Source of the DNA: Amoebidium appalachense
Lineage: Eukaryota > Protista > Ichthyosporea
NCBI GenBank assembly: GCA_963693365.1
Contig: CAVNZM010000004.1
Coordinates: 8,655,093-8,719,092, forward strand
Reading direction: 5' to 3'
Length of the DNA stretch: 64,000 bases
This document shows positions 124-61,800 of the stretch, piece after piece (position 1 is the first letter of the stretch; the number at the start of each line of letters is the position of its first letter). A program made the position numbers and the translations under genes. The notes under the pieces are model-generated. The model ran no database searches, was not told where the DNA came from, and was given only the letters and a program-made list of their open reading frames with translations.

Positions 124-29376
<29,253 letters not shown>

Positions 29377-34807: not shown

Positions 34808-35815
34808 ATGTGTGCATACCTAACAGCGAAGAAGAGCCAAAGTGGCCAGGCGGCCGCGGCATACCCACCACTTGCAGGTTTCCTTCAGTCTATGTCGCCA
34901 TACCCCCTGTGTGCACATTGTCCCGCCAATGACCTCTCCAGCTTTCTCTACAACATGCTCGGCAAGCTGGCCATCAACCACGGCCTACTAGTAGTGGGCC
35001 TCAACTATGCGCAGCGGATTGTTACATCCCATGCCCATTTACCAAATGCACAAAAACACCGCAAGCAATGTGATGGTGCCGCCGATCTTCCAAACGGACA
35101 CAACATGCCATCAGATTCTACAGACGACGAACAATACCACGTTAATGCCCCCGCCGCGACGGTGGGCAGGCCGGGGTTGGCTTGTGGGCATTGCTTGGCC
35201 GTGTCCTGCCTCGTTTTGGCGGGAAAATACTTGGAGGATAACCACCGGCCTTCTTACCGCCTTTGGATGTTAGCGTCGCAACTTCCGCATGATAGACTGA
35301 AGAGTATTGAGCTCGAGGCACTGTGCGCACTAGACTTTAGCCTTCACATCTCGCAAGATGAGTTCTGGCTGCTGTGCAAAGGGTACGAAACAGACCCTGC
35401 CGTCCTCTCCTGGCACTATGTGTCGAGGTTAAATCTCAATACCGAGGCTCATGACAGAGTGGCACAGGTACACCTACCCTCCTTTGCACAGAATCAACAT
35501 AACACCAAGCCACTCATGGACACACCGCCAAATACGCCGCCAACGCCTGCAACGTCAACACAAGCGCCCTCCCCACCCTCACCTCCACACACCGCTCCGG
35601 AAGCGGCACTGCCTGGAGAAAGAGAAAATCCCGCTATCCGCGTCGGAAAAAGGCCTTTGGCGCATGGTGTTGAGGTTAGTCTTGGAGAGGAGAGAAATTG
35701 TGATGGATGGGAGAAGGAACAAGGTTCATCTGCACGTGTGAGTGGGTGGGAGCCAGAAACAAAGAAAAGGCGTGTGTCACATGCGGTATCAGTACCTCGG
35801 CCCAGTCCATTATGA
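34808..35815 (+). CDS. Pho80/Pcl-family (PHO85/CDK5-type) cyclin, intronless CDS
   Basis: ORF 34727-35815, first ATG at 34808. Cyclin-box motifs: LSSFLYNML..LLVVGLNYAQRI, CLAVSCLVLAGKYLEDNH...WMLASQLPHDRLKSIELEALCALDFSLHISQDEF. Pro/Thr/Ser-rich tail with TP/SP sites and KKRR. A possible upstream acceptor (cctcag at ~34783) leaves the start uncertain. Confidence 0.8.
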   Translation: MCAYLTAKKSQSGQAAAAYPPLAGFLQSMSPYPLCAHCPANDLSSFLYNMLGKLAINHGLLVVGLNYAQRIVTSHAHLPNAQKHRKQCDGAADLPNGHNMPSDSTDDEQYHVNAPAATVGRPGLACGHCLAVSCLVLAGKYLEDNHRPSYRLWMLASQLPHDRLKSIELEALCALDFSLHISQDEFWLLCKGYETDPAVLSWHYVSRLNLNTEAHDRVAQVHLPSFAQNQHNTKPLMDTPPNTPPTPATSTQAPSPPSPPHTAPEAALPGERENPAIRVGKRPLAHGVEVSLGEERNCDGWEKEQGSSARVSGWEPETKKRRVSHAVSVPRPSPL

Positions 35816-45695: not shown

Positions 45696-47759
45696 TTATA
45701 ACGCTGTTCTCCGAAGCTCATAACTACTATTTGTCCACGGGGTCTGCAATGATGAAGAATGCAGTGCTGTTTGGGACCCAACCCCTGCCAGCGACGCGCG
45801 AAATGAAGGATTATGACTGGTTTGGGCGAGACTCTCCTGTTGCGTCATTAAGAAGATTTGTTCCTTAAGTTTCTGCCTCCTCCTCCTATTCCTCCTCCTC
45901 CAAACAACCGCTGTTAGTATGCAGCAAAAGCACAGACACAAAAGAAGAAACAAACCTCCCAACCCACCCAACACATAAATCATCATTCTATGTACCGACA
46001 CGCTTTGACTTGGTGCAGGTTCCGGTGAATTTGCGACAGGGCTTTCGTAGAAAACACCGAAATTTCCCTCCGTCATCAACTCCCCTGTATCCCTACGAAC
46101 ACCCCAAGCCGCAAAATCGCGCCGGCGCCGGCGTTGTGTTGTATCGAGGTAGTCAACAAGCACGGTCCACGTGAGCGTGATGTTGTTGCTGGTGGTGGTG
46201 GCGGCGGCACAGGTCAGCGCAGCCGTGACGGGGATGGGCATCTGAATTTCTTGTACAGCAGGTACATATGTTTGGGTAAGGTTGGTGATATCGGCGTAGG
46301 GAGGTGCATAAGGGGTGCAGTCGCCATCGGACGTGCGCTTGAATGCGGTGACATTAGCCCCAGACAGACCCACCCCAGTGGCGTTGGTCCAAATGCGGAT
46401 GGACCAATAGGAAGTGGCGCCGAGGTCGAAGACGGACGTGGGGCGGGTGGTGGCGTAGGTGGTGTCCTCGCGGAGAACAACATCGAGGGTGAACAGGGCT
46501 GAGAGGTTGAACTCGGTGACATTGCAGAAGTTGTTGGTGCTGATGAAGAACTCGATGTCGGCAAAGTTGGAGAGCATGTTGGGGCAGGTGCCTGCAGCAA
46601 CGCTGCTTGCCTGGCAGCCAATGGGCACGTTGAGGGCCTTGTACTGGCCCGTCATGTCGCAGCTGGTGATGTTGAACTCGATGGTGCTGTCGCAGATCTC
46701 GTTGACGGCCAGGCCGTTGCAGCCCGCACCCAGCACCCAGTTGCTGGCATTGGACGTGGGGATGTTCATGTTGGTCATCGTGAGCGAGCCGTTGGCCCCG
46801 CCCGCAATGGTGTAGGGGGCCGGCAAGTTTACGGTGATGATGATGGACGACGTGTTGACGCCGTCGACCTCCTTGACGCCCAGCTTGGTGATGACGGCCT
46901 GCAGGTCGGCCTGGGGGCAGTTGACGGTGATGGTGGCCGACACCGTGCCCTCGCGGTTGATCTGCACACGCAGCTTGGCAACGGCATTGCCGTCACGCGT
47001 CACGGGCACACGCAGGTCCTTCGTATCCGTTATTCTGACAACTCTCTCTTTCATATCCACAGATATATCGGTGAGATAATTTACGAACTTTGGGTCTGAA
47101 ATATTGTCAATTGCCACACCACAGTTGCCCAGTCGGTTAAAAAGCACGGAAAAAAGGACGGATGCACGGCACGTGTCGCCGTAGACAACAAATTTGTAGT
47201 CGGTAAGAGAAGGGTTAGAATTTGAACCGCCGGTCCCATCTTCGAGATATGAGCAATTTCCAAACGAGATATCTGCGACGTAGCGCGTTTCAAACCAGTA
47301 GCCCAAATCTAGTTCTATGTTCACTTTGTTGTTTCTAATGTTTGGATTCGTAATTCCGACGGAGAAATTCGCTTGCAGTGCGTATGGATAGGCCAATTTA
47401 CAAGGAGTGCCAAGGGTGCGGTGAATAATTGCGATGGAATATATATCGATTTTCACGTTGGGTTTGGGCACCTCGAACACGTAGGGCACGTCGGTGCCGG
47501 GAACCAAAAACGTTGTGTTGTCGGCACCAGTTACAGAAATGCTCTCATTGATAACGATGGGTGCATTGATTGTGTGTTTGCCTGACATAAACATAACTGT
47601 ATCTCCAGAACGTGCCGTTGATATCTTCGTTGCTGCATTTTCGCTCGGCAATATTTGTATTTGGGCCGCTTGTATGACGTTCACTAGTTGGGCAAGTCCA
47701 ACGAGACAGAAGCACATGTAGTGACGGAAAGAGTTCCCTGCAGCAGCTCGCTTTGCCAT
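45696..47759 (-). CDS. Intronless type-I single-pass membrane glycoprotein with a beta-helix-type N-terminal cap and a ZP-/FRAS1-FREM-C-terminal-like ectodomain
   Basis: 694-codon ORF, first ATG at 47759. Signal peptide (..MCFCLVGLAQLVNVIQA). ARSGDTVMFMSGKHTINAPIVINESISVTGA matches the typical start of right-handed beta-helix proteins. Many N-x-S/T sites and cysteines; RRRRR furin site; TM helix IYVLGGLGGLFLLLCLCFCCILTAVVW followed by RRRNRRRR; short Ser-rich tail. The CDS call is strong; the family assignment is inference. Confidence 0.85.
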   Translation of the reverse strand: MAKRAAAGNSFRHYMCFCLVGLAQLVNVIQAAQIQILPSENAATKISTARSGDTVMFMSGKHTINAPIVINESISVTGADNTTFLVPGTDVPYVFEVPKPNVKIDIYSIAIIHRTLGTPCKLAYPYALQANFSVGITNPNIRNNKVNIELDLGYWFETRYVADISFGNCSYLEDGTGGSNSNPSLTDYKFVVYGDTCRASVLFSVLFNRLGNCGVAIDNISDPKFVNYLTDISVDMKERVVRITDTKDLRVPVTRDGNAVAKLRVQINREGTVSATITVNCPQADLQAVITKLGVKEVDGVNTSSIIITVNLPAPYTIAGGANGSLTMTNMNIPTSNASNWVLGAGCNGLAVNEICDSTIEFNITSCDMTGQYKALNVPIGCQASSVAAGTCPNMLSNFADIEFFISTNNFCNVTEFNLSALFTLDVVLREDTTYATTRPTSVFDLGATSYWSIRIWTNATGVGLSGANVTAFKRTSDGDCTPYAPPYADITNLTQTYVPAVQEIQMPIPVTAALTCAAATTTSNNITLTWTVLVDYLDTTQRRRRRDFAAWGVRRDTGELMTEGNFGVFYESPVANSPEPAPSQSVSVHRMMIYVLGGLGGLFLLLCLCFCCILTAVVWRRRNRRRRQKLKEQIFLMTQQESLAQTSHNPSFRASLAGVGSQTALHSSSLQTPWTNSSYELRRTAL

Positions 47760-51575: not shown

Positions 51576-52032
51576 GTAGTCCTTGGTGTGTGTGGGCGTA
51601 TTGATAGGGATGCCAGGCAAGTATGCGTAATGATGTACATGCGGGTAAGATAGGTGGCCATGCCCATGGAGGAAAGGAGCAAGGAAGAAAGGCAGAAAAG
51701 GGGAATGAAGGGCGAGGGTGCAGTTGATGTGCAACAGGTGGGATGGCGGCAACCGGGGAGTGTTTGTGGAGGGCCGCGCTCACGGCGACGTATGGGAGGA
51801 TGTCCGTGATGTGTGCATGTGTGTGTGTGTGTGTGTGCATGTGTGTCTGTGTGCGTCTGTGTGTGTGTTGTGTACGCGCGCATGTGGATGTGGATGTGGA
51901 TGTGCACGTGCATGTAAGCGTGTGCCTGCGCATGTGCATGTGGGTGCGCTGTGTGCGTGTGCGTGTGCTGTGTGCATGCATGCGTGTTTGCGTCTGGATG
52001 CCATGTGTGTGTGCGCGCACATGTGTGTGCGT

Positions 52033-52080
<48 letters not shown>

Positions 52081-52396
52081 GGGATAGGTTACCGCAAAGG
52101 ATGCTGTCGTGGGTGTAGACGTTCATTTCGGTGTCTGCACGGACATCGAACAGACGGCACGAGGAGTCATCGGACCCCGTGGCAAAGGCCTGCACGTGCA
52201 CGGCTAGGTGAGGACGGCAGCATACACGCAAGTGCCGCAAGCACACACCGGCAGACACATGCATGGACAAACACACACACACACACGTACACAAACAAAA
52301 GCGAGCACATACGACACGCGCACGCACACAAAACACACACACACACACACACAGAGAGAGAGAGAAAGAGAAAGATATAGTGAGGGAGAGGAAGAA

Positions 52397-52439
<43 letters not shown>

Positions 52440-53699
52440 TGGGAGGGAGGGAGGGACATGCGCAAGCAAAAAAAATAAATAAATAAAGGACATCCACATC
52501 CACATGCACATGCACACACGAGGAATAAAGTAGCACACATCCATTGGCATGCGTTAGATAAGTGGAACGGACAATGCCGGGACCTTGTGTGTGTGTGTGT
52601 GTGTGTTGGGGGGGGGGGGGGGGGGGGTTGAATGCGGAACACGGCACGAAGTACGCATACACGAAGGACACATGCAAAGGCAAACATTCAAGTATGCAAC
52701 ATAGCCATGCGCGCAGTATGCGTCATAAGCAGAGCCCATCCTCAGGGAGGGCCCAAGTCATCAATTGCGTCTGAGTTTCGACCCCTTAGCCCGCGTATAT
52801 ACGACCCTCCAACTCAGACAGCAGCATCAACTGAACTTGGGAGGGTCAACCCGTCTTGATCAAAGACGAGCAGGGTTGCTTATGCAAGCAAGGTGAGCAA
52901 AACGGTGAATATGTGTGTGCAAACTAATGCAGTGCAGCGAAAAATGCGAATGTGCTTACAGATGCACGACACAGAGCAACCATGCCCGGTTGCATTTGGG
53001 GGGGGGGACGAAATAGCGGTTGAAATCCATATCCTGAAAATAAAGCAGGAGTTGGAAGACAACGGTAGAAATAAAGGATTACAACGAAAACTGAACAGAA
53101 TGTCCTAGGTCAGTATGTGTGGATACAGGGCCGTTGTTAGGTGGGTGTGATTGTGTATATGTGTGTGGGTGCGTGCGAGCCGCGCGCGTGCATGTGTGCG
53201 GGTCCGCGTGTGTGTGCCAACAAGCATGCAGGTGTGTGTGCGGATGCGCCGCGCCCAATGTACTGTGTGTGTGTGTGTGCGCGCCTATATATGTGTGTGT
53301 GCGCGTGCCTGTGGACTTTGGTGTGTGTGCATGTATGCCTGCATGTATATCTGCAACACAAGCAAATATACCCCCCTCTCCCCCCCCCCCCCTCCCCCCG
53401 CCCCCCTCCCCCCCCTTTTTTTTTCTCGTTTTTAAGGGGTGCATACATCTCCACCCGGGAACAGAGCCACGGCGTTGATGTCAGACTCGTGGCCGGTGAA
53501 GGTCTGCACACACTTGCCAGACCGGATGTCCCAGTGCTTGGCAGTGGCATCACATGCACCTAAATTAGAGATGTGAAAAACGAGAGGTTAGATTTGTGTG
53601 TGTGTGTGCTGAGGAAGGAGGGGGGGGGGAGGAATTGATGTGGAACATAAGTCTCCCGTTCGTGGAATGGGTTTGGGGGTTGTGTGCGTGCGTGTTCGT

Positions 53700-53732
<33 letters not shown>

Positions 53733-54889
53733 CGTACGTGTGTGTGTGTGTGTGCGTGTGTGTGTGTGCGTGTTGGGGAGGGAAAGGGGGGCAGGGGGGG
53801 GGGGGGGGGGGGAGAAGTAGACAGGAGGATGGGAGTCATGAAGGCAAAACCATGTGAAAACCAACAAAGAGAAAAACACGAGACGAAGCCAAAACGACAC
53901 AGGAAGATGATACTACTTGAGCATGAACAAAGCCCATCGTCCGCCCGCAAGCAGGGGAGGGGGGGGGGAGGGGGGGGGGGGGGGGGGTAAAATGCATCAT
54001 GGCGAACAAGACACAATGGTAAACAACACAAAAACAGGGCGCAGGGGGAAGGTAACGAAAAAAGAATGTGGTGAAGAGGGCGACACGTGGGGACTGAGTT
54101 TTCATTCTCTAAGAGAGCTAGGCACGTGCAAAACACGTTGGAGAGCGAAGAATGCGTTTATTTTGGGTTATTTGGGAGGGGGGGACACAAAGGGGTTGGA
54201 TATGCACAAGATTAGATATAATAACGTACCGGAGGGCCAGACTCATGCAAAACACGGTGTAGAAAAGAGAATGCAGAATTATAATGGAGGGGGTCACAAG
54301 GGGGTTGGATATGTGTAAGACTGGATATACAACACAAGATTGGATATATCAACATGCCGGAGACGAACGAGTTCTCGTTCTTGGAGAGGACCAGACTCAT
54401 ACAAACCACGGTGCAGAAAGAAGAATGCGGGATTTAAATAAAGGGGGCCACGAGGGGGTTGGATATATACAAGACTGGATATACATAAGACTCGATGATA
54501 TCAAGAAACCTTAGAAAACAGAGTCCTCTTTCTTGGAGAGGGCCAGGTTTACTCAAAACACGCAAAACACGGTGCACAAAGGACAATGCGGGATTCTAAG
54601 GGAAGAGGAAAACAAGGCGGTTGGATATATACAAGATTGGATATAACAACCTACCTGAGAAGAAGGAGTTCTCGTTCTTGGAGAGGGCCAGACTCATGAC
54701 GTCACCGGTGTGGCCCTGGAACTGTGTCTTGAGCTGCCCGGTCTCGATGTCCCACAGCGCACACGTCATGTCCCCGCTGCTGGTCACGATCTCCTTGTCG
54801 CTGAGGAACCGGCAGCACGACAGGTAGCCTGAAAGCATACGCGTGTGTATGTATGTGTACGTGTACGTGTGTGTGGGAGAGGGGAGACG

Positions 54890-54952
<63 letters not shown>

Positions 54953-55598
54953 CACGCGCGCTTTTTACAACGGAGGGAGTGTGCTTGGTGGGGAGAAGGG
55001 GGGGGGGGGGGGGGGGGAGGGGGGGGGAGGGGGGTACAAGAAAGTTACACGAGCGGCGTGGGTTGGTGTATGTTGTGAGGGTTGCCCGTGGGTGTTGGTA
55101 ACGGTTGTGGAGGGAATGGATGGGGTGTATGGCCGTACAGTATGCAGCACAAAGGTGCACAGCAGCAACAGCACAACGTTGTATCCAAATATCTACGTGC
55201 CATACACGTGCACGCGTGCCTGCTGATATATATATAGAGCTTCGTTTTGCCTAGGTAATGTAGAGGGGAGAGAATATTTTGCAGAACTCGAACACACCAG
55301 ATGACACAAAATGGCATGCTGCATATCAGTGTATCGTTATGTCGACAGGAGGCACAAGCCAAATCATCCATACATAATGCCTGATGGTCACGGAACTGAA
55401 AATACGGGAAACCGTTCCTTTTACACATTGTGTCGATCATCCATCCGCAATGTACAGGGGCGGGTGAGGTTACTTATGCGATCAAGACTTGAATAGAAAA
55501 TTTGACACAGTGATATGTGCTGAAGATTAGGGTTGCAGCTTAGATGGAGGGAGGGTGGCGTCGTGTGCTTGTGTGTGTGTGTGCGTGCGTGCGTGCGT

Positions 55599-55651
<53 letters not shown>

Positions 55652-57798
55652 GGCAAAAAAATATCGTGCACATGTGTGGTGTGTTTGTGAGTATGTGGGT
55701 CTTGGCTGTGGGTAGCAGTGTGTATGTGCTAGAATTGCGAGAGAGAGGGGAGGGGGAGGAGGGGGGGGGGGGGGGGGGGGTTGTTGATGCGGAACACGGT
55801 ACGAAGTATACATACACGATGAGAAGCCTAGTGCAGGGCACGTGCAAATGCAAACGGGGGGGAGAGGAAGGGGTGGCGACGAAATCACCCAAGAACACAA
55901 GCAAGCATACAAACATAACACAAGCCAAAAAAAAAAAAAAAAAAAAAAAAAACCCATACCGGTGTGGGCAGCAAGCTCACGGCTCACGCGCACAGCGCCC
56001 TCCCTAGTGCGCAGGTTGTAGATGGAGCAGATATTGTCCAGACCGCCGCAGGCCACAAAGTTGCCCGAGGGGGCATAGGCACAGGTCATGACCCACGACG
56101 AACGAAGGGGGATGGCGTGAACCTTGTTGGTGCTGATGGCGTCCCACACAATCAGCTTGCCGTCCTGAGACGCACTCACAAGGTGTCTGTGTGTGTGTGT
56201 GTGAGGGGGGGAGGGAGAGGGGAGGAGGGGGAAGGGGAGAGGGGAGGAGGAGGTAGGGGAAGGAAGGAGGGGGAAAATGGGGGGGGAAGAGAGGAGGGCG
56301 GGAGGGGAAGAGGGAGGAGACGGGAAGATGGAAGGGGCCGGTGAGAGAGAGGAACAGGGGAAAGAGGGTAGAAGGAAGGAGTGAAGGGAGGAACGAAGGG
56401 AGGTGGAGAGAAGGGGAGGGGAGGGAGGGGGGGGGGGGGGGGGGGGGGGAGGGGGGGAGGGGAAGCGGTTAGTTTGGGCGTGTCAAACTGTAGGTGTGTT
56501 GGGTGTGTGTGTGTGTGCGCGCGCTTTTGTTTGCGATGAAAAGACGTCTGTGGTTCGTGAAAAAGGAAAGTGCCTTTGTCCGTGTGTTCGTGTGGATGTC
56601 CGTGAGTGTTTGTGAGTGTGTGTGCATGTTTGTGTGTGTGTCGAGGGGGAAAGTGGTTGGGAGGAAACGGGCAAGAGAGGAAGAAGGAATGAAATCAAAA
56701 TACCACGCAGATTTTGGACAACCAAGCACTCATTCAAGTATGCGTTTAAGTAGAGCGCACCCTAGGTGGGTGTATGTGTGTGTGTGTGCTTGGGGCGGGC
56801 GGGAGGGGGGGGGGTAATGTGTACGACGTGTGTGCGTGCGGTAAATGTGCCTTTATGTGCGTGTTAACGTCTGTGCATGTGCATGTAGATGTGCGTGTAC
56901 ATGTGTGTCTGCGTGTGTGTGCGTGTGTTGTGTGCATGTGTTACTGGAGACAGGGGGAAATGACGGCATGAAGGGGGGAAAGGGGGCGAATTGGGGAGCA
57001 CAATGCGAGTAGGAAGACACACACTAGAGATGCAAACGGTAAATCATGCTTTGTGATTCAACAGGCCCCTTGGTCGGCACGCCCTGGGGGGAAGGGGGGA
57101 GGGGAGGGGGGGGGGGGTTTTGAATGCGGAACACAGTACGAAGTACGCATACACGATGAGAAGCATGGTGCAGGACACATGCAAAGGCAAACATTCAAGT
57201 ATGCAGCATCAGCCATGCGCACAGTATGCGTCATAAGCAGAGCCCATCCTCAGGGAGGGCCCAAGTGGGGGGGGGGGTTGAATGCGTGATTGAGTACAAG
57301 TACACATTCGCAACGGACAACACAATGCAGAGTGCAAACCACACATAAAAAGAGTATGCCCAATAAGCAGAGCCCATCCTCAAGAGGCGTCCAAGTCATC
57401 CACAGTACCCGAATTTCGACTTATCCACCTCATGGGGGAGGAAGGGGGGGGGGGGGGGGGGGGGGGAGGGGAGGGGGGAAGGGGGATAAGTATGTGCCGT
57501 GGGGGGGGGGGGGGGGGGGGGGGGGGTGGGGGGGGATGCGAGGAGTTAATGGGGTAGACTTCAACAAGACCGAGGAACGAGGTCGGAGTGACTGGAAGGC
57601 AAAGGGGGGATAGAGGGGGGGAGGGGAGGGGAAGAGGAGAGGGGGACATGGAATGCTACACACATTGCCAAGCACATACTCTCAACAGGAAACCTGGTGC
57701 GGATGTGCAAGAAAGCGTACAGAGGTGTGCAACCTAGCTCGCGCGCGAAACCCAGCTCAGACAGGTATACCCTGGCACGCACTGGAGGGGAGGGGGAA

Positions 57799-57835
<37 letters not shown>

Positions 57836-58454
57836 GGTATATTCGGATGTGTTAGAGAATACGAAGCACACATTATTGACGGACAACACGAAACAAAATT
57901 GCCAAGCACACATCAAGAATATGCATCATAAGCAGACCCCATCATTGAGGGGAAGGGGGGTAAACATCAACAGAACCCCTGGGGAGGGGGGGGGGGAGGT
58001 GGGAGAGAGAGAGAGAGAGAGGAGGGGGGGGGGGGGGGGGGGGGGTTTACCTGTTGTCGGTGGACCAGTGCATGGCGTAGATTTTGGCCAGATGGCCCCT
58101 GAGGGTGCGGCGCACACGCAGCATCACCTTGGGCAGGTCAGCAACATCTGGGGGGGGTTCATTAGTGATATGTTGCAATTCCGTAAAATTTCGCACGCAC
58201 GCACGCACGCACGCACGCACATGCACATGCACACACACACGGTGTGCACCACAAGTAGAGCTCACACACCCTCGGGAGAAGGGGGGGAAGACGGGTGGTG
58301 GTGGTGGTGGTGGTGGGGGGGGGGGGGGGGGGGATGAATGTGTACACAGTACAAAGTATAAGCACAGCAGATGACCTATACGGAGATATGCAAAAGAGGG
58401 TGGGGCGGGACGGGGCAGGGCAGGGTGGGGTGGAGCGGTACGGGCTGGCTGGAG

Positions 58455-58492
<38 letters not shown>

Positions 58493-58688
58493 GTAATCAC
58501 TTAACTTCACAGCGGATAACATATGTAATGCATACCAGCAAACCCCCCCCCCCCCCTCCCCCCCCCCCCCCCCTCCCCTACCCCCCGCCACCACCACCAC
58601 CACCCACCCCGCACAGAGAAAAGAGAGAGCAAGGAAGAAAGAAAAGAAAAGAGAAGAAGAAGCAAAGCAACACGAAAAGAAAAAGGAG

Positions 58689-58719
<31 letters not shown>

Positions 58720-58878
58720 AAGGGTAAAATAACATAAAATTTAACTAACGTATCAAAAAATACCTCCGCATGCGTCCCTGAGAGTGGTGTCCCTCTTGGA
58801 CTCCCTCTCGGCCTTGATCTTGGCCTTGATCTCGTCGGCCTCCTTCTTGAGCTGTGCAATCCGATCGTCCGCAGACAT
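50387..58878 (-). CDS. GNB: Heterotrimeric G-protein beta subunit (343 aa, WD40)
   Basis: Exons (minus strand): 58878-58764, 58147-58051, 56186-55960, 54828-54655, 53559-53447, 52189-52093, 51106-50993, 50481-50387. All introns GT-AG; total 1032 nt in frame. Translation includes [89 protein letters not shown] and [11 protein letters not shown]. Confidence 0.97.
52628..52791. repeat. G-beta-locus intronic repeat family, full-length copy (near-identical to 59303-59466)
   Basis: ttgaatgcggaacacgg...cccatcctcagggagggcccaagtcatcaattgcgtctgagtttcgaccccttagcc; one mismatch seen against 59303-59466. Partial or diverged copies at ~51385-51520, 55783-55855, 57120-57425, 57840-57950 and 59214-59270. 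Confidence 0.85.
54090..54700 (-). repeat. Degenerate tandem array derived from the G-beta exon 4 / intron 4 junction
   Basis: About 4 units of 110-150 bp. Each carries exon-derived sequence (gagggccagactcat and/or ttctcgttcttggagag) plus intron-derived ggggttggatat..caagattggatat. Confidence 0.75.
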
Positions 58879-58891
58879 CTTGGCTGCAAGT

Positions 58892-61800
58892 CTGTGTTAC
58901 CAACGGGGTTAAAAAAGTCAGTGCACCAAAAATGACCCATGAGGGGTTAATAAGGAACACGCAGGTGTTCAAGTCAGCCATCGTGCACCCAATGTAACCC
59001 ATGAGGGGTTAATGGTGACCACACAGGGGTTAAGTAAGTAGCCGTGCAGCAAAAATAATACATGCAAGGGGGTAATGGGTAATAGTGACTTGAAGACGGG
59101 TCAAAGTGGTTAAAGCCATCTTCCCTGCCCCTCTGTGACCACCCACCCACAAGTTAATTAAAGGGGTGGTGGTGGTTGGGGGGAGGGGGAAGGGGCATGG
59201 GGGAAGAGGGGGGTTGAATGTGCTACAAAGTACGAAGCACACATAAACAACGGACAACGCGATGCAGATTGGAGGGAAAGGGGGGGGGGGGGGGGGGGGG
59301 GGTTGAATGCGGAACACGGTACGAAGTACGCATACACGAAGGACACATGCAAAGGCAAACATTCAAGTATGCAACATAGCCATGCGCGCAGTATGCGTCA
59401 TAAGCAGAGCCCATCCTCAGGGAGGGCCCAAGTCATCAATTGCGTCTGAGTTTCGACCCCTTAGCCGGGGGAATGCAGTGCAACACACAGTACCATGTAC
59501 CAAGACGCAAAAAGAAAACCGTATTTAGAACATGTGACATGTCTGTGGAGGGGGTTGGGGGGGGGGGGGGGGGGAGGGGGGGAGGGGGGGAGGTTGGAAG
59601 ATAGAAAGCAAGAGGAGTAAATGCAGCACAGAGCTAACTTCAATCAAGGAAACCAAAACAAGAAAAAGGAAAGAGAAAGAGAGAAAGAGAGTAATACAAT
59701 TTGTGAATACAAAAGGTGCCCAGGGGAGAGAGGGGAAGGGTGGGTGGGTGGGTGAGTGGTGGTGATGGTGGTGGTGGTGGTGGTGGTGGTGGTGGTGGGG
59801 TGGGGGGGGGGGGGGGGGGGGAGGGGGGGGGGGGGGGGGTCGCTAAGTTGCTACGCACCCACCCCTTGACTGCAATGAATACCAAGAAAGTCGAAGAGTG
59901 GGGCCCTAGGGGGATGAATACAGCAAGACAGAACAACACGGTGAAAAGAAAACATTGGCACAGTGATGCAACGGGGAAAGGCAACACAGATACTAAACAC
60001 GTGCCCCACAACCACTCAACCACACAGATATCCACGCATGCAAGATTGCACGCACACACACACGCCAGCACGCATGCGCCCCCGTGCGCGCACGCGCGTA
60101 CACACACACACATACACACACGCACACGCACACACACACACACACACACACATACACACACGTGGGCATGCACGTACACACACACCCACGCACCTACACA
60201 CGCGTGCGCGCACGTACACACACAAGCACGCACACACCCAAAAAAAAAAAAAACACCTGCATGTAGGCACACAAATACACGGACCCCCCCCCCCCCCCCC
60301 TTTCCCCCCGCCCCCCAAAAAACACACACACGCACGCACACCTTACCCCGCCACCACCACCACACACACACACACACACACAGAAACACACCTCTGCCGG
60401 TGAGCCCATGCACGTGCGCACACACTCTTACACACAAAAGACCGTGCCAAAACCACCAAACATGCACGTGGGCACCTATGAAAACACGTGCATACACACA
60501 CATGCGCACGGATGGTTCACGGACTCACAGACACTCAGATCCAGGTGTATATATATACACTAAAACTCAGGGTGGGTGAGCATAGGTGAGGGGGTAATGA
60601 CGGTAACTTCGAAGAATAAGCACAAAGATAGTAAAGAGGATAACGTGTGTGTGTGTGTGTGTTGGTGAGTGCACACCTTCACAGCACTCCAACACAAGCA
60701 CATACATGTCACAAAGATGCTACAGAGAAGACAGAGAGACTGGCACAATCCCTGCGTGGCCTGCCAGACTAACATCCACCCATATCAACACACTTGCAAC
60801 ATGAAAAAAAAAAGCATGCACATCCACCAAGAACACGCACAACAACAAAAGACAAGCAAGGGCACACAGACACCCAAACATTCACACATCCCTTCAAAGC
60901 CGTACACGTCTCTCCAAGTGCCTAATTGCTGACAAATACAAAGCACACCCACCTTCAAACGTTCCCTCCCCTCTCCCCATCCCTTTCCCCCTATCTTGCC
61001 CACCACCGCTAGCCACCCACTTTCTCCTCCACATGCAGACCCATTGATACGGCAACCCAGTATATGTCCGTCCGTTTGTCACCTTCCCAAGTTCCGTTCC
61101 ACTGAGCATCACACGACCACAATTTCCTTTCCTATACACCAAGAAAACCAGAAAGAACATAGCCAGGTACCCCCTCGAGGACCCAGAACAAGCATCACAC
61201 TAAGAAACCATCGTGCTGGTAGATGTGTTTATCTGTGGACTGTTTTTAAGGAAGCACACAAGCGCTCGCACAAGAAGCCCCCCAAAGACCGCAGCCATGC
61301 TTGAAAGGACGTGGCAACATGTGGAAGTGATTAAAGACAATAGGAGAGAAGAACCAGTGCAGTTGCCAAGAAATAAGCGGCTAGAAAGAGAAACTCATAC
61401 ATCAATAGACAGAATACGCAAGCCCCATTCCAAGCTACTATACGAGTGCGCTACAGAAGGGAATTACACGATTAGCAAGCATGCAATCATATGCTGCACG
61501 TAGGAAATTATGCGCACATCAAGGGACTAGAGAATTACAAGTTGAGCGCTTGCACACCTTTGGTCCTCATCCGACCTAGTTAAGGAGACCCAGCCTACAC
61601 TGCCACCTTTCTCCATGCCTACCACTATCAAAGATTCAACCGACTTTTCCACTGTGTTCCCTCCCCCCTCCCCCCCCCCCTTCTCCGCGCCCCCCCTCCC
61701 CCCCCCCTCCAAAAAAAAAAAAAGAGAGAAACGAAGAAACTTTTGTGCGTGCCCGACCTAACAAGCCTAAGAAAACTTCTGTAGGACGTGTGGGTTGGAC

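Follow-up and report, generated by a model that had tools for sequence, protein, structure and literature searches.

An intronless Amoebidium membrane glycoprotein gene with a predicted ZP-C-like domain and a furin-type cleavage site, and its ichthyosporean family

Zona pellucida (ZP) proteins are activated for polymerisation when the tail of ZP-C is cleaved, which severs the membrane tether and frees the external hydrophobic patch (PMC7456536); the place of the patch strand in uromodulin is taken by the interdomain linker of the following subunit (bioRxiv 2020.05.28.119206). A 2026 review presents the canonical ZP module as an animal trait and also mentions incomplete, non-canonical ZP-like sequences in the choanoflagellate Salpingoeca rosetta (PMC13361971); thus, ZP-like folds outside animals are not wholly new. 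FRAS1 and FREM2 have a furin site directly before the C-terminal membrane helix and are shed in a furin-dependent manner (PMC2855323). The region of Fras1 preceding the helix has been described as "unique", and the Fraser complex forms anchoring cords, cord-like suprastructures (PMC10095167). Here, we describe a gene of the ichthyosporean Amoebidium appalachense whose product, P0001, is compared with these systems. It lies in a window of 64,000 nucleotides (contig CAVNZM010000004.1 of assembly GCA_963693365.1, positions 8,655,093 to 8,719,092) and reads from ATG to stop as an uninterrupted frame of 687 codons at 47759..45696 on the minus strand, the strand of all protein features given below. 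P0001 has the layout of a type I membrane glycoprotein, with 19 cysteines and 16 N-glycosylation sequons, 15 of which precede the membrane helix. Judged from its sequence, a structural model and the analogy to ZP proteins, we lean slightly towards the view that P0001 is shed by a convertase into a cell coat or wall, where its subunits likely polymerise through strand exchange.

The C-terminal part of P0001 resembles the cleavable end of ZP proteins. Its last extracellular domain, D3 (residues 415 to 572; 46044..46517), is predicted to have a ZP-C fold that includes a strand beyond the cleavage site. ZP-C families (endoglin, betaglycan, ZP2 and uromodulin) topped both structure-search lists for D3, with alignments of ~120 to 127 residues compared to ~95 to 118 for most single-domain non-ZP rows, and the six best ZP-C rows aligned through residues 570 to 573. 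The consensus proprotein-convertase site RRRRR (residues 543 to 547; 46119..46133) is in the C-terminal tail of this domain, in a loop predicted to be disordered (predicted local distance difference test [pLDDT] below 50 for residues 540 to 556). It is followed by a hydrophobic strand (residues 558 to 570, with GNFGVF at 565 to 570; 46050..46088) that is predicted to pack into D3 and complete it as the equivalent of the external hydrophobic patch (pLDDT of 94 for residues 561 to 570). Indeed, in the structure alignments both the cleavage site and the final strand fall at ZP positions. The membrane anchor is a helix at residues ~594 to 620 (45900..45980; peak hydropathy, 2.72) with the cysteine cluster CLCFCC at 608 to 613, which by its sequence is likely palmitoylated, and a basic stop-transfer stretch, a disordered cytoplasmic tail and the stop codon follow (45696..45899). 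All of these motifs had been listed in a preliminary description of the locus and were found in place. We regard the ZP-C-like cassette, taken by itself, as very probable.

A phmmer scan of P0001 against 1.84 billion representative proteins gave 39 matches, 38 of which also fit a profile of residues 118 to 573; P0039, a beta-helix/SLH protein, did not. When 21 of the 38 were looked up, all 18 relatives that could be named were ichthyosporean (1 from Amoebidium parasiticum, 9 from Creolimax fragrantissima and 8 Sphaeroforma arctica clusters). The nearest named relative was that of A. parasiticum, with 96% identity over residues 248 to 470, in agreement with the earlier view that the genome is not an animal's. 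P0002, an Amoebidium protein, shares 73% identity with P0001 over 540 residues. Named members are annotated as "hypothetical" or carry a label derived from SdrD-B inserts alone, except P0030, whose automatic "Peptidase A1" label had no Pfam backing. Conservation was counted in a 40-row family alignment, over the rows with a residue at each column. Cysteines 120, 169, 197 and 213 of the first sandwich domain, D1, were invariant (31/31, 32/32, 33/33 and 34/34 rows) and Tyr228 was kept in 29/33; six cysteines of the second, D2, were kept in 26 to 29 of 27 to 30 rows, the two of D3 in 31/33 and 32/33, and Tyr537 in 31/31. The cleavage site and the helix were scored in the 29 members whose sequence runs to the end of D3, after two truncated proteins misaligned there (P0023 and P0026) had been dropped from 31. 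An R-x-R/K-R motif was present in 28 of the 29, at most 72 and mostly 5 to 13 residues from Tyr537, a membrane helix in 27, and at least three cysteines near the helix in 21. Since the furin-type site and the helix are kept across the family, the motifs of P0001 are more than chance.

The signal peptide region of P0001 (residues 1 to 31; 47667..47759) is weak, with a peak hydropathy of 1.67, and the family alignment suggests that Met15 may be the true start. Residues 32 to 117 (47409..47666) form a short beta-helix-like domain that resembles the second, C-terminal beta-helix of PL6 alginate lyases such as AlyGC and BcAlyPL6; the family profile matched residues 438 to 521 of 5gkq (E = 7.9e-14), and structure-atlas rows for the family member P0010 were all beta-helices, with template-modelling scores below 0.5. 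The match spans only ~85 residues, and the full catalytic beta-helix has no counterpart in P0001; therefore, enzyme activity would not be expected. D1 (residues 118 to 272; 46944..47408) is an immunoglobulin (Ig)-like beta-sandwich and a candidate, unproven ZP-N domain. It is followed by D2 (residues 273 to 414; 46518..46943), an inserted beta-sandwich with the six conserved cysteines, which contains the segment earlier likened to FRAS1/FREM2.

P0001 thus shares with ZP-module proteins (uromodulin, ZP2/ZP3, betaglycan and endoglin, as well as the nematode standalone ZP-C proteins) a ZP-C-like last domain, a site in its C-terminal loop, a plug strand and an anchor, together with a cysteine-rich Ig-like domain upstream of D3. 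It differs from them in its N-terminal beta-helix and its non-animal host, and several further observations weigh against a ZP-type polymerising protein. Structure comparison gave D1 no specific ZP-N assignment, as defined by the ZP-N fold, the E'FG extension and the signature tyrosine. D1 and D3 are separated by the 140 residues of D2, where ZP modules have a short linker. Identity of D3 to its ZP-C matches was just 6 to 13%, its ZP-C Z margin over generic Ig folds was 1.6 in one list and 3.2 in the other, and the ZP3 precursor rows 3nk3 and 3nk4 stopped at residues 558 and 541. Pfam ZP models found no match in P0001 or its relatives, nor did profile searches of PDB sequences give a ZP match. 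As the preliminary description had noted, canonical ZP cysteines are partly missing: the last strand of D1, for which ZP-N would have Cys1-4 as the canonical set, has none of its four, and D3 holds two, short of the standard ZP-C set (Cys5-7, 6-8 and A-B). Losses of canonical cysteines are known from endoglin, which is among the best D3 matches and is described as a membrane-bound protein that does not polymerise (PMC7456536). The ZP interpretation made by eye in the preliminary description, for which profile searches and structure prediction with a fold search had been proposed as checks, therefore stood in part: the fold search, the furin-type site, the predicted strand and the anchor agreed with it, and the cysteines, the short linker and the profile searches did not. 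By its cysteines and linker the family falls outside the canonical ZP module, yet sequence and model suggest that its C-terminal switch would work in a ZP-like manner.

Since the family keeps the parts of this switch in the ZP order, we prefer a shed, likely polymerising coat or wall glycoprotein. Sequence and conservation point to a disulfide-bonded, N-glycosylated precursor, which would be secreted. In the model, the strand beyond RRRRR completes D3 and would hold it closed. As in ZP proteins, a furin- or kexin-type convertase would then cut the disordered loop, so that the tether is lost and the strand released, and the open D3 groove could accept a strand of a neighbouring subunit to give filaments or a mesh. 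The last step is the weakest because D2 replaces the short linker used by uromodulin; the donor strand must come from elsewhere, which is our main doubt. The N-terminal beta-helix, and SdrD-B stalks in other members, would be displayed as accessories for glycan binding or adhesion.

The gene itself is a mosaic. A main tract shared with paralogues at ~96 to 98% DNA identity and with a high GC content at third codon positions (GC3) spans 46315..47021 and probably arose by gene conversion; a second, short tract (46147..46244; 98 bases) differs from a paralogue contig at one position. For codons 248 to 470, GC3 is 87% and identity to P0002 is 96%, compared to 48% and 43% for codons 1 to 247 and 46% and 29% for codons 541 to 687 (P = 9e-20 for the GC3 step inside the frame). 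In a tree of 17 near-full-length rows without SdrD-B arrays, the P0001-P0002 distance was 1.01 over residues 33 to 246 but 0.08 over 247 to 540, whereas three other pairs were level across both regions (1.14/0.96, 1.29/1.22 and 0.91/1.08). In runs X1 and X4, the gene flanks were on single contigs with zero differences, and the core gathered several paralogue contigs that left at 47021, 46244 and 46147; the junction at 47021 was bridged by contigs in seven of the eight runs, as listed. Loose contig ends in runs that hold the unique flanks of the window translated by eye into the P0002 stretches KEYVDKISLT, FVNTVQPNEI and DGSQRRRRR. Several further family members are present in the genome, some of them more diverged. 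The simplest explanation is gene conversion from a P0002-type paralogue, which we consider likely.

Could the family be functional and this copy a decaying or little-used chimeric duplicate that looks family-like only through conversion from an active paralogue? The low GC3 of its unique parts next to the shared core, the weak signal peptide and Cys281, where most members have tyrosine, would fit, as would the single-nucleotide polymorphism (SNP) density against run X7, which was similar in the unique coding parts (5/1246) and the covered 5' flank (5/~1040). However, the frame is intact, the unique coding parts had zero indels against run X7, and three of the five coding SNPs were synonymous, whereas the 3' flank, which is partly of low complexity, had 18 SNPs in 1096 bases and 5 indels (P = 0.003). 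Moreover, all 12 conserved cysteines are retained, and the unconverted N-terminal parts scored like P0002 on leave-out profiles (45.0 versus 42.9 and 110.6 versus 114.5 bits). The evidence for selection on this copy is mixed, with SNPs fewer than in the 3' but not the 5' flank; decay seems to us very improbable. Hardly more probable is convergence, in which D3 is a generic Ig-like sandwich, the furin site and the helix arose independently and no ancestry is shared with ZP proteins; the lead of four ZP-C families in both lists, their longer alignments and the position of the cleavage site and last strand argue against it.

The chief rival is a ZP-C-containing surface receptor or adhesin that does not polymerise, like endoglin or betaglycan. 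Its cleavage would mature or shed the protein, or the pieces would be held together by the plug strand, and the beta-helix or SdrD-B stalk would bind a ligand. Endoglin and betaglycan hold the four best rows of one D3 list, although ZP-C rows whose Z scores lie less than 1 apart count as ties, and their order thus favours no function. D2 interrupts the linker between ZP-N and ZP-C that uromodulin-type strand exchange requires; on the other hand, in 28 of 29 members the furin site is between the last core strand of D3 and the plug strand, the place at which cleavage activates those ZP proteins that polymerise. The cysteine-rich helix and the long tails of several members, as well as the SdrD-B arrays, would suit a receptor or adhesin, but the cytoplasmic tails show no conservation across the family. 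We consider this rival unlikely, though a serious one.

With FRAS1/FREM2 and sea urchin ECM3, P0001 shares a C-terminal membrane helix directly preceded by a furin-type site. It is about one-fifth of the size of FRAS1/FREM2 and has no Pfam match to their CSPG repeats, Calx-beta, VWC or furin-like repeats; CSPG repeats and Calx-beta were also absent from the families listed for the 39 relatives (best five per protein). None of the 39 phmmer matches was of FRAS1/FREM-like length (longest, 1859 residues), and a weak search of 2885 long candidates gave seven matches, none of them FRAS1/FREM. The membrane-proximal region of FREM2 seems to match D1, D2 and D3 in how its motifs are ordered and spaced along several hundred residues, past the segment quoted in the preliminary description; homology is fairly probable, as a lead rather than a result. 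A more tentative idea, which we hold to be somewhat doubtful, regards D1-D2-D3, plus the cleavage site, the plug strand and the anchor, as an ancestral ZP-like polymerisation module that predates animals. Ichthyosporeans would use this module in wall or coat, FRAS1/FREM2/ECM3 would retain it as their "unique" region (where it may form the anchoring cords), and the canonical ZP module would be a derivative that lost the middle domain. If the expanded ichthyosporean family has the complete regulatory cassette of ZP proteins, cleavage-gated matrix assembly would be as old as the last ancestor shared by animals and Ichthyosporea. The family also bears on whether FRAS1/FREM2, the Fraser syndrome genes, encode a cryptic ZP-like module in their unannotated C-terminal region. 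A literature search, with subscription journals and bioRxiv supplements outside its scope, found no report of ZP-like proteins in ichthyosporeans or of a ZP-like domain in FRAS1/FREM2. In the lab-tractable species, nine Creolimax genes and eight Sphaeroforma clusters are now named as candidate coat or wall proteins. Like the P0001 family, the Salpingoeca sequences combine a unicellular holozoan host with a non-canonical ZP-like domain.

Other members of the family carry inserts. SdrD-B repeats are familiar from bacterial surface proteins, and arrays of them are typical of adhesins. SdrD-B/CarboxypepD-like arrays were found in P0008, P0009, P0016, P0017, P0019, P0023, P0026, P0027, P0040 and P0041, at no fewer than two sites of the module: between D1 and D2 (P0009 and P0041) and inside a D2 loop (P0008). 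In P0006, D2 and D3 are separated by a PAN/apple-like insert (E = 9e-4, under the Pfam cut-off); PAN domains co-occur with ZP modules in some invertebrate proteins.

The P0001 gene is intronless, as had been proposed: its alignment to P0002 has no large gap, and no GT..AG joint was seen in the frame across contigs of eight runs. Microsatellites abound in the surrounding DNA, which also holds fragments of a G-protein beta subunit gene; the window is therefore eukaryotic, and the absence of introns from a gene this long is conspicuous there. The G-protein beta exons (~52000 to 59000, minus strand; WD40_Gbeta, E = 3e-45 for one exon) sit amid long CA repeats and G/C runs. Another intronless open reading frame, of 335 codons (34808 to 35815, plus strand), matched Cyclin_N weakly (E = 6.5e-4, under the Pfam cut-off). 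The surrounding stretch from 32 to 40 kb is nearly free of microsatellites and has a CpG observed/expected ratio of ~0.8, compared to ~0.4 to 0.6 across most of the first 32 kb. Weak matches to a myosin head (1249 to 1896, plus strand; E = 7.6e-6) and a PH domain (10172 to 11341, plus strand; E = 0.005) may both come from exons of a single unconventional myosin gene.
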